64,000 bases of DNA, taken from the NCBI RefSeq assembly GCF_056746865.1, contig NZ_CM163382.1. One strand, written 5' to 3'. The position numbers and the translations under genes are program-made. Every line of letters starts with the position of its first letter. The first letter of the stretch is position 1. Positions 58,081 through 58,890 of this stretch are shown here, one piece after another. The notes beneath the pieces are model-generated. The model made no database searches. It was not told the origin of the DNA and saw only the letters and a list, made by a program, of their open reading frames with translations.

Positions 58081-58890
58081 ATGAAACAATATGAAGATGG
58101 TTATAACGTGAATGGATATAGCTGGGAAAATGAAACAATTGAGTATTTGTTGAATGATAAACAACTGACAGATAATCACATACCTGAATGGGTTAAAAAA
58201 AATGAAATTGCAGCATTCTGGTTCTGGTTAGTTATAATTAACACAGATCCCAAACTCCTTGGGGTTCGTAATGAATTAGGGTTCAATACAGCCATGATGG
58301 GGCTGATTCCTGCGGGGAGTATACCCATAACAACAATTCCTTCAGATCATGAAATGAGACTGGATGTTATAAGCAAATGGATTAATGCATTAATCCTTGA
58401 CAATCAATCAGATTGCTTCATCTCAACAATGCATCAAAACTGGCTGCAGATCGAAAAGAGAAACGAAGCCAAATGGCTTAAAAAGAATACAGAACAACTC
58501 GAATGGGCATGGAAATATATCAATGCACGCATCCCGCACACGTATCTTTCCTGGTTTTATCCTGTAAGTGATAACGAAAGATACATTGCTATCGTAGTTT
58601 TACTAAAAATTTTATTCCCCGCAGATACACCATACTTACAGCAGCCAAAAGTACTTCACTATGGGGTTGCCGCAAAAGAAAAATTTTTCGACAAGATGCA
58701 CAATGCATTCCGAAAACAGTTTACCGACGGAAAAAAAGATAAGCGGGTACAAATCAACGTTAAAATATCATCAGATGCAAAACGTACTCTGGACAGACTG
58801 ACCAGAGAACTGAAAACAACACAACAGGCTGTCCTGGAACATCTGATTCAGAACCACAGGCTGGTGATTCAGAACCACAGACTGTATTAA
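58081..58890 (+). CDS. hypothetical protein (269 aa) with possible C-terminal ribbon-helix-helix-like segment
   Basis: ATG at 58081 after GAGG; no family recognised; C-terminal ...INVKISSDAKRTLDRLTRELKTTQQAVLEHLIQ...; stop overlaps stop of convergent gene. Confidence 0.45.
   Translation: MKQYEDGYNVNGYSWENETIEYLLNDKQLTDNHIPEWVKKNEIAAFWFWLVIINTDPKLLGVRNELGFNTAMMGLIPAGSIPITTIPSDHEMRLDVISKWINALILDNQSDCFISTMHQNWLQIEKRNEAKWLKKNTEQLEWAWKYINARIPHTYLSWFYPVSDNERYIAIVVLLKILFPADTPYLQQPKVLHYGVAAKEKFFDKMHNAFRKQFTDGKKDKRVQINVKISSDAKRTLDRLTRELKTTQQAVLEHLIQNHRLVIQNHRLY

Follow-up and report, generated by a model that had tools for sequence, protein, structure and literature searches.

The two adjacent 21-bp units that close the gene at 58081..58890 (+ strand) are a real, derived, lineage-specific and fixed duplication of a heptad, and the repeat at 58843–58884 is in this sense an ordinary fixed indel. 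All positions refer to the window, the whole 64-kb stretch of DNA analyzed here. We consider it quite probable that a single in-frame tandem duplication of 21 bp took place in one allelic lineage and was then fixed, with a near-neutral effect. The gene encodes a 269-residue hypothetical protein with a helical N-terminal part and a C-terminal RHH domain, and its limits, as originally predicted, match those of the 810-nt PGAP CDS in genomes that are 100% identical over window positions 58000–59000.

In codon register, copy 1 (CTGATTCAGAACCACAGGCTG, 58843..58863, + strand) encodes L255-I-Q-N-H-R-L261 and is contiguous with the remainder of helix 2 of the RHH domain; copy 2 (GTGATTCAGAACCACAGACTG, 58864..58884, + strand) is adjacent to it, is identical at 19 of the 21 positions and encodes V262-I-Q-N-H-R-L268. 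The last codon, TAT (Tyr, 58885–58887), and the stop codon, TAA (58888–58890), follow copy 2 on the same strand. The 3′ end of the CDS thus reads GAA CAT, the two copies, TAT and TAA, and the protein ends in LIQNHRL-VIQNHRL-Y (end of the translation, EHLIQNHRLVIQNHRLY). The two 21-mers quoted in the original prediction and the peptide LIQNHRL-VIQNHRL that it placed at the C-terminus are both present, adjacent and correct; the span that it gave, 58846–58890, starts 3 nt too late (the true start being 58843) and at its other end extends over the final codon and the stop codon. Tandem Repeats Finder delimits the repeat as 58844–58884, with a period of 21, 2.0 copies, 95% matches and the unit TGATTCAGAACCACAGACTGG. 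This is the sole tandem 21-mer with at least 19/21 identity within the 64-kb window; a search of the whole window with up to three mismatches allowed found no further occurrence of the unit, and none of 100 shuffles gave two matches to it. By our own binomial estimate, a tandem 21-mer of ≥19/21 identity is expected ~3e-5 times in 64 kb, and chance is no explanation for the 2 × 21-bp repeat. A search by eye for microhomology at the duplication joints found none visible.

The Val with which copy 2 opens, in place of Leu, is not a later substitution, since the copies agree at 20/21 positions in a register shifted by one base. This register is apparent in the allele of strain 2452, which ends in Asp (GAT) and in which the repeat reads [TGATTCAGAACCACAGGCTGG][TGATTCAGAACCACAGACTGG]ATTAA. 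The true register of the unit is TGATT...CTGG, with the copies at 58844–58864 and 58865–58885. Read in this way, the junction Val (GTG) is the product of the duplication joint itself (…CTGG|TGATT…) and of no later mutation: its codon is made up of the final G of one unit, originally base 1 of GAT, and the TG of the next. In the strain 2452 allele the copies truly differ only by the synonymous AGG/AGA. The GAT at the end has mutated to TAT (D>Y) in the window; Asp (GAT) occupies the last codon in 12/12 relatives with an intact tail of the same type.

A protein search of 5.8 billion sequences returned only 10 relatives and HMMER, run in full against 1.84 billion representatives, returned 48, and the full-length relatives nearest the window protein all end in one heptad. 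Their tails read LILYGRLD in P0003 (71% identity to the window protein), LILNGRLD in P0006 and P0007 (50%), LILNRRLD in P0008 (46%), LILNGRLD again in P0013 (29%, or 35% over the stretch matched by HMMER) and LIMTGKLD in P0029 (21%). One heptad is thus the ancestral state and is well conserved, the single-copy tail LILNGRLD strikingly so from 29% to 71% identity, and both window copies carry a derived Q and H at positions where the outgroups have L and G/R. In Escherichia coli, the gene is found in 517 of 5,426 complete genomes, chromosomal in every case; 230 of these carriers have an allele ≥95% identical to that of the window, 286 one of ~82% identity and one a more divergent allele. Alignments to the 82% class, for which the sequence check covered two genomes and the protein cluster representatives, are ~21 nt shorter. 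The allele of ATCC 11775 (82% nucleotide and 70% amino acid identity; CDS of 789 nt, 262 aa) shows an exact gap of 21 nt or 7 residues relative to the window in both DNA and protein alignments and has the tail LILYGRL-D. Strain 103, which represents a third lineage with a 792-nt CDS, likewise has one copy at the DNA level. The original prediction had called for homologs to be compared for one versus two copies of the heptapeptide; because every relative outside the window-type lineage carries one heptad, two copies are not common to all homologs, and the in-frame duplication that it proposed did arise within the history of the gene.

The same prediction described the duplication as recent and the tail as possibly length-variable, and neither description is supported. 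Exactly two copies are found in 230/230 window-type alleles among the 5,426 complete E. coli genomes, a sample of these alleles having been read base by base and the others judged from identity bands and alignment spans. A synthetic one-copy query with 150-nt flanks matches the 230 window-type genomes only at 90–95% identity and with a 21-nt gap, and every match listed for this query spans 342 bp of the record and so holds two copies. With a synthetic three-copy query the best identity is 94.2%, again with a 21-nt gap and with the listed matches spanning 342 bp; neither synthetic query found a match of ≥95% in the 5,426 complete genomes. The CDS is 810 nt long in every allele of ≥95% identity whose annotation was read. 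An exact-pattern scan of JGI metagenomes recovered four contigs, all two-copy, and the same type of scan found no match in 100,044 species-representative genomes; a single-copy QNHRL allele, which would represent the state before duplication, was recovered from neither collection. Among protein clusters of which 15 and 8 members are listed, 8/8 complete window-type proteins that were aligned have two copies, and no QNHRL allele with one or three heptads occurs among them. An assembly or sequencing artefact, in favor of which nothing was found, is refuted by the breadth of the distribution: a native 81-nt query gives 215 full-length ungapped matches, of which 118, in independent complete genomes, carry the identical two-copy sequence and 97 more a near-identical one (1–4 mismatches), and at least 1000 contigs carry the exact protein of the window.

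The lineage in which two copies are fixed has diverged internally by up to ~3%, and copy 1 has acquired substitutions of its own in sub-lineages, namely CAG>CAA (SFE8 and strain 492), AGG>AGT, which gives R>S (strain 492), and CAG>AAG (L017); the duplication therefore predates the ~3% allelic divergence and is no fresh event. Tandem repeat tracts of this kind can slip, and two units in perfect register with 95% identity might be taken for a hypermutable, contingency-type tract that changes in copy number between strains. We hold this to be very improbable, given that no copy-number variant occurs in the 230 complete genomes, the four metagenome contigs or the cluster members read, and that the one 262-residue protein of a window-type cluster, P0142, is a mosaic and not a case of heptad loss. 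The copy number does not differ among close strains, as it does at a variable-number tandem repeat or contingency locus, and in contrast to variable-number coding repeats there are just two units and no variation in the population. Length differs only between old allelic lineages, in which it is fixed at 269 aa or at 262 or 263 aa. In being head-to-tail, in having a unit that is a multiple of three, in keeping the frame and in creating a new junction codon, the repeat resembles other in-frame tandem micro-duplications and coding repeats.

Several cluster members of unusual length were considered as heptad variants and set aside. P0142, from E. coli, has the entire C-terminal module of the other lineage, with LILYGRLD and linked RHH substitutions, behind N-terminal two-thirds that are nearer the window type and have substitutions of their own; because it is a natural recombinant allele, the RHH module and the tail are exchanged as a unit between allelic lineages. 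Members of 333 and 337 aa are frameshift read-throughs, and those of 267 and 271 aa differ at an FW repeat elsewhere in the gene. There, the hexamer TTCTGG occurs twice at window positions 58216–58227 (F46-W-F-W49 in AAFWFWLV), with one copy in P0141 (267 aa) and three in P0002 (271 aa). These variants are rare and each is found on one contig, where a sequencing error is possible; it is this FW dipeptide repeat, and not the C-terminal heptad, that is the length-varying tract of the gene.

The C-terminal RHH module comprises approximately residues 218–268 (58732..58884, + strand) and consists of the strand VQINVKI, helix 1 (231–243) and helix 2 (248–267), the last of which takes in both heptads, with the predicted helix running through both copies. 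The strand-helix-helix fold of ~45 residues that defines the RHH superfamily is present by prediction, an assignment based on subthreshold sequence matches and on a monomer AF2 model in which the β-strand is not formed. Searches of PADLOC, PHROGs, NCBIfam and Pfam with the 269-residue protein returned no defense system and no named family above threshold. Residues 204–259 give weak scores against RepB-RCR_reg, RepC_IncLM and the RepA/CopB regulator, and the window protein falls below the curated cut-offs of RHH families (14.5 bits versus 21 for RepB-RCR_reg and 18.1 versus 80 for RepC_IncLM). Among 34 aligned relatives, seven match RepB-RCR_reg (best E 7.3e-6), three match RHH_1, and RHH_10 and RHH_5 are matched by one each. 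The nearest RHH families are RepB-RCR_reg (PF10723), the plasmid copy-number repressors RepA/CopB (NCBIfam PRK13702) and RepC_IncLM; the structures listed are TraM (3on0, 6.4), MazE4 (5xe3, 6.3), TacA (7zg5, 6.1) and ParD/PrpA (7ycv, 6.1).

RHH proteins are obligate dimers that insert a two-stranded sheet into the major groove of DNA, and the superfamily has a G-x-S/T/N turn where helix 2 begins. Relatives of the window protein have G-x-T at this position (RGCTQ, RGVTQ, RGATQ and QGITL), whereas K-T-T-Q takes its place in the window protein and in alleles close to it. Two further features distinguish the window protein from classical RHH members, which are 45–90 aa long or have an N-terminal RHH: its RHH lies at the C-terminus behind ~215 helical residues of no known fold, and its helix 2 is longer by the duplicated heptad. 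It does not resemble the RHH antitoxin of a type II toxin-antitoxin pair, the neighboring gene being convergent and without a known toxin family and the RHH being C-terminal in a protein of 269 aa. Literature searches on the protein by accession, and on the gene pair in the YfjP/YfjJ/CP4-57/GTPase literature, found no report.

The family profile also aligns, marginally, with MatP over residues 140–263 (hmmsearch E 0.0035; hhalign 89.8%, with a MatP query sequence that agrees with the PDB chain aligned by hmmsearch), and the alignment stops exactly where the helix of MatP goes on. MatP (PDB 4d8j and 3vea) is a protein of ~150 aa composed of a bundle, an RHH and a C-terminal coiled coil of ~20 residues; the window protein lacks that coiled coil, has ~140 extra N-terminal residues and continues for 5–13 residues beyond helix 2. 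MatP is moreover the product of a core chromosomal gene, in contrast to the window gene, which is island-borne, lies beside a convergent gene and a GTPase gene and is present in 517/5,426 E. coli genomes. From these comparisons and the predicted structure, the window protein would have a C-terminal RHH, possibly preceded by a MatP-like bundle, without being a member of the MatP family. Across the wider family, the stretch that follows helix 2 is of variable length.

The convergent partner gene lies at 58887..59819 (− strand) and encodes 310 aa from the PGAP start, although its ORF reaches 59834 from a GTG (315 aa); a GTPase-family gene (Pfam MMR_HSR1) at 59926..60810 (+ strand) is a conserved neighbor of the gene pair in these islands. 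The two convergent genes share 4 nt at their stop codons, TTAA at 58887–58890, so that base 3 of the final codon in the + strand gene belongs to the stop codon of its partner. The 4-nt overlap, the partner and the GTPase neighbor recur at P0013 (L004, 1148–1151; 29% identity and 35% over the HMMER-matched stretch) and at P0015 (L005, 6843–6846; 24% and 29%), the overlap being read directly as TTAA in the window and deduced from called gene coordinates in L004 and L005. At P0017 (L013) the same three neighbors are found and the overlap is absent, and more distant relatives are located elsewhere in similar islands. The conserved stop overlap suggests coupled 3′ ends or an obligatory overlap of antisense transcripts. 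The partner protein has no match in Pfam, NCBIfam, PADLOC or PHROG, and a search for structural relatives of its AF2 model (pLDDT 81, confident) gave no informative match. Its family is confined to Enterobacteriaceae and is strongly mosaic, with blocks swapped between alleles and two alternative C-terminal thirds.

The repeat lies directly beyond the stop codon of the convergent gene, where both transcripts must overlap, and RHH proteins often bind repeated sites. It could thus be thought to act at the level of DNA or RNA, as an operator or iteron-like direct repeat or as a terminator or antisense element at the convergent junction, with the coding change incidental. This we regard as highly unlikely, because no other occurrence of the unit exists in the window, not even upstream of the gene itself, no terminator-like site coincides with the repeat, the RNA folds of the two strands are no better than those of shuffled sequences (z of +0.63 and −0.21), and other lineages function with one copy. 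A simple terminator scan of window positions 57200–60000 identified eight terminator-like hairpins versus 2.4 expected (sd 1.6), several of them inside the convergent genes and antisense to the host gene (+ strand, 59428–59448; − strand, 58541–58523). These are consensus matches only, and they may possibly be stop sites for the convergent transcripts.

If, as we favor, the repeat results from a single duplication of near-neutral effect, the ancestral tail would have been L-I-L-N-G-R-L-D-stop and would first have changed to L-I-Q-N-H-R-L-D in the window lineage. The unit TGATTCAGAACCACAGACTGG would then have been doubled, by replication slippage or unequal exchange, to yield LIQNHRL-VIQNHRL-D with its Val codon supplied by the joint; the AGA/AGG difference between the copies and the GAT>TAT (D>Y) change in the sub-lineage of the window would have come later. 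Copy 1 would keep the RHH domain intact and copy 2 would add about two helical turns to helix 2. Because seven residues rotate the helix by ~700 degrees (a phase shift of ~20 degrees, at 100 degrees per residue), V262, I263 and L268 are expected to occupy almost the same helix faces as L255, I256 and L261. Because the insertion keeps the frame and the terminal ...ATTAA, it does not alter the stop codon with which the convergent gene overlaps. This is a clean, datable, heptad-sized in-frame duplication that extends a helix and leaves both the domain and an overlapping convergent stop unbroken.

The consequence is most likely neutral or mildly modifying, with no switchable or hypervariable tail, and a small functional effect seems to us somewhat more probable than a large one. 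As the tail LILNGRLD is so well conserved, changing and doubling it could nonetheless matter. Adaptive change, in which the duplication and the L>Q and G>H substitutions jointly retune an interaction helix at the C-terminus of the RHH protein, would fit several observations: the window lineage has four nucleotide changes within 9 nt plus the duplication in a tail that is otherwise conserved down to 29% identity, two copies are fixed across the 230 genomes, the length of the tail after helix 2 varies in the wider family, and the alignment of the family profile to MatP 140–263 ends where the MatP helix continues. Such retuning might concern higher-order oligomerization, DNA bridging of the type mediated by the post-RHH coiled coil of MatP, or the way in which the protein contacts its convergent partner or the GTPase; we consider it unlikely. 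The altered conserved C-terminal tail is a natural first target for mutagenesis. On the favored reading of a near-neutral event, the heptad duplication is a lineage marker for an island gene and matters little in itself.

The genomic context is worth more than the repeat. The gene at 58081..58890 lies in a CP4-57-type integrative island, and identical islands contain, in order, YfjI, inovirus Gp2 / YagK-YfjJ, this gene, the convergent hypothetical gene, the GTPase and a further hypothetical gene, followed by DUF905, DUF932, an antirestriction protein, RadC, DUF987 and CbeA/CbtA. The RHH/MatP-like gene, the convergent gene and the GTPase gene stay together in E. coli islands and in relatives down to 24–29% identity, as a three-gene group kept in CP4-57-like islands. 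It is conceivable, if improbable, that the 269-residue protein belongs to a putative, undescribed family of island-encoded MatP-like proteins (helical bundle plus RHH) that organize DNA or act as regulators together with the convergent gene and the GTPase, and that the duplication and the faster change of LILNGRLD represent adaptive retuning of an assembly or partner helix in one lineage.

Four GAATAG motifs with an exact spacing of 11 bp (starts at 57889, 57900, 57911 and 57922; array 57889–57927; Tandem Repeats Finder period 11, 3.5 copies) lie ~150–190 nt upstream of the ATG of the gene, and the 82% lineage (ATCC 11775) partly retains them; the array is a candidate operator for the RHH protein. 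A complete IS5 of 1195 bp with terminal inverted repeats (56083–57277; InsH ORF, 56115–57131) separates the Gp2/YfjJ-family gene from the RHH gene, with the 4-bp target duplication TTAG on either side (56079–56082 and 57278–57281); this insertion is absent from the otherwise near-identical islands of ECCNB12-2 and W2-5. In one strain, E. coli W2-5 (NZ_CP032989.1; L014, 186–2701), the resistance genes sul2, aph(3'')-Ib and aph(6)-Id adjoin the left part of the same island.
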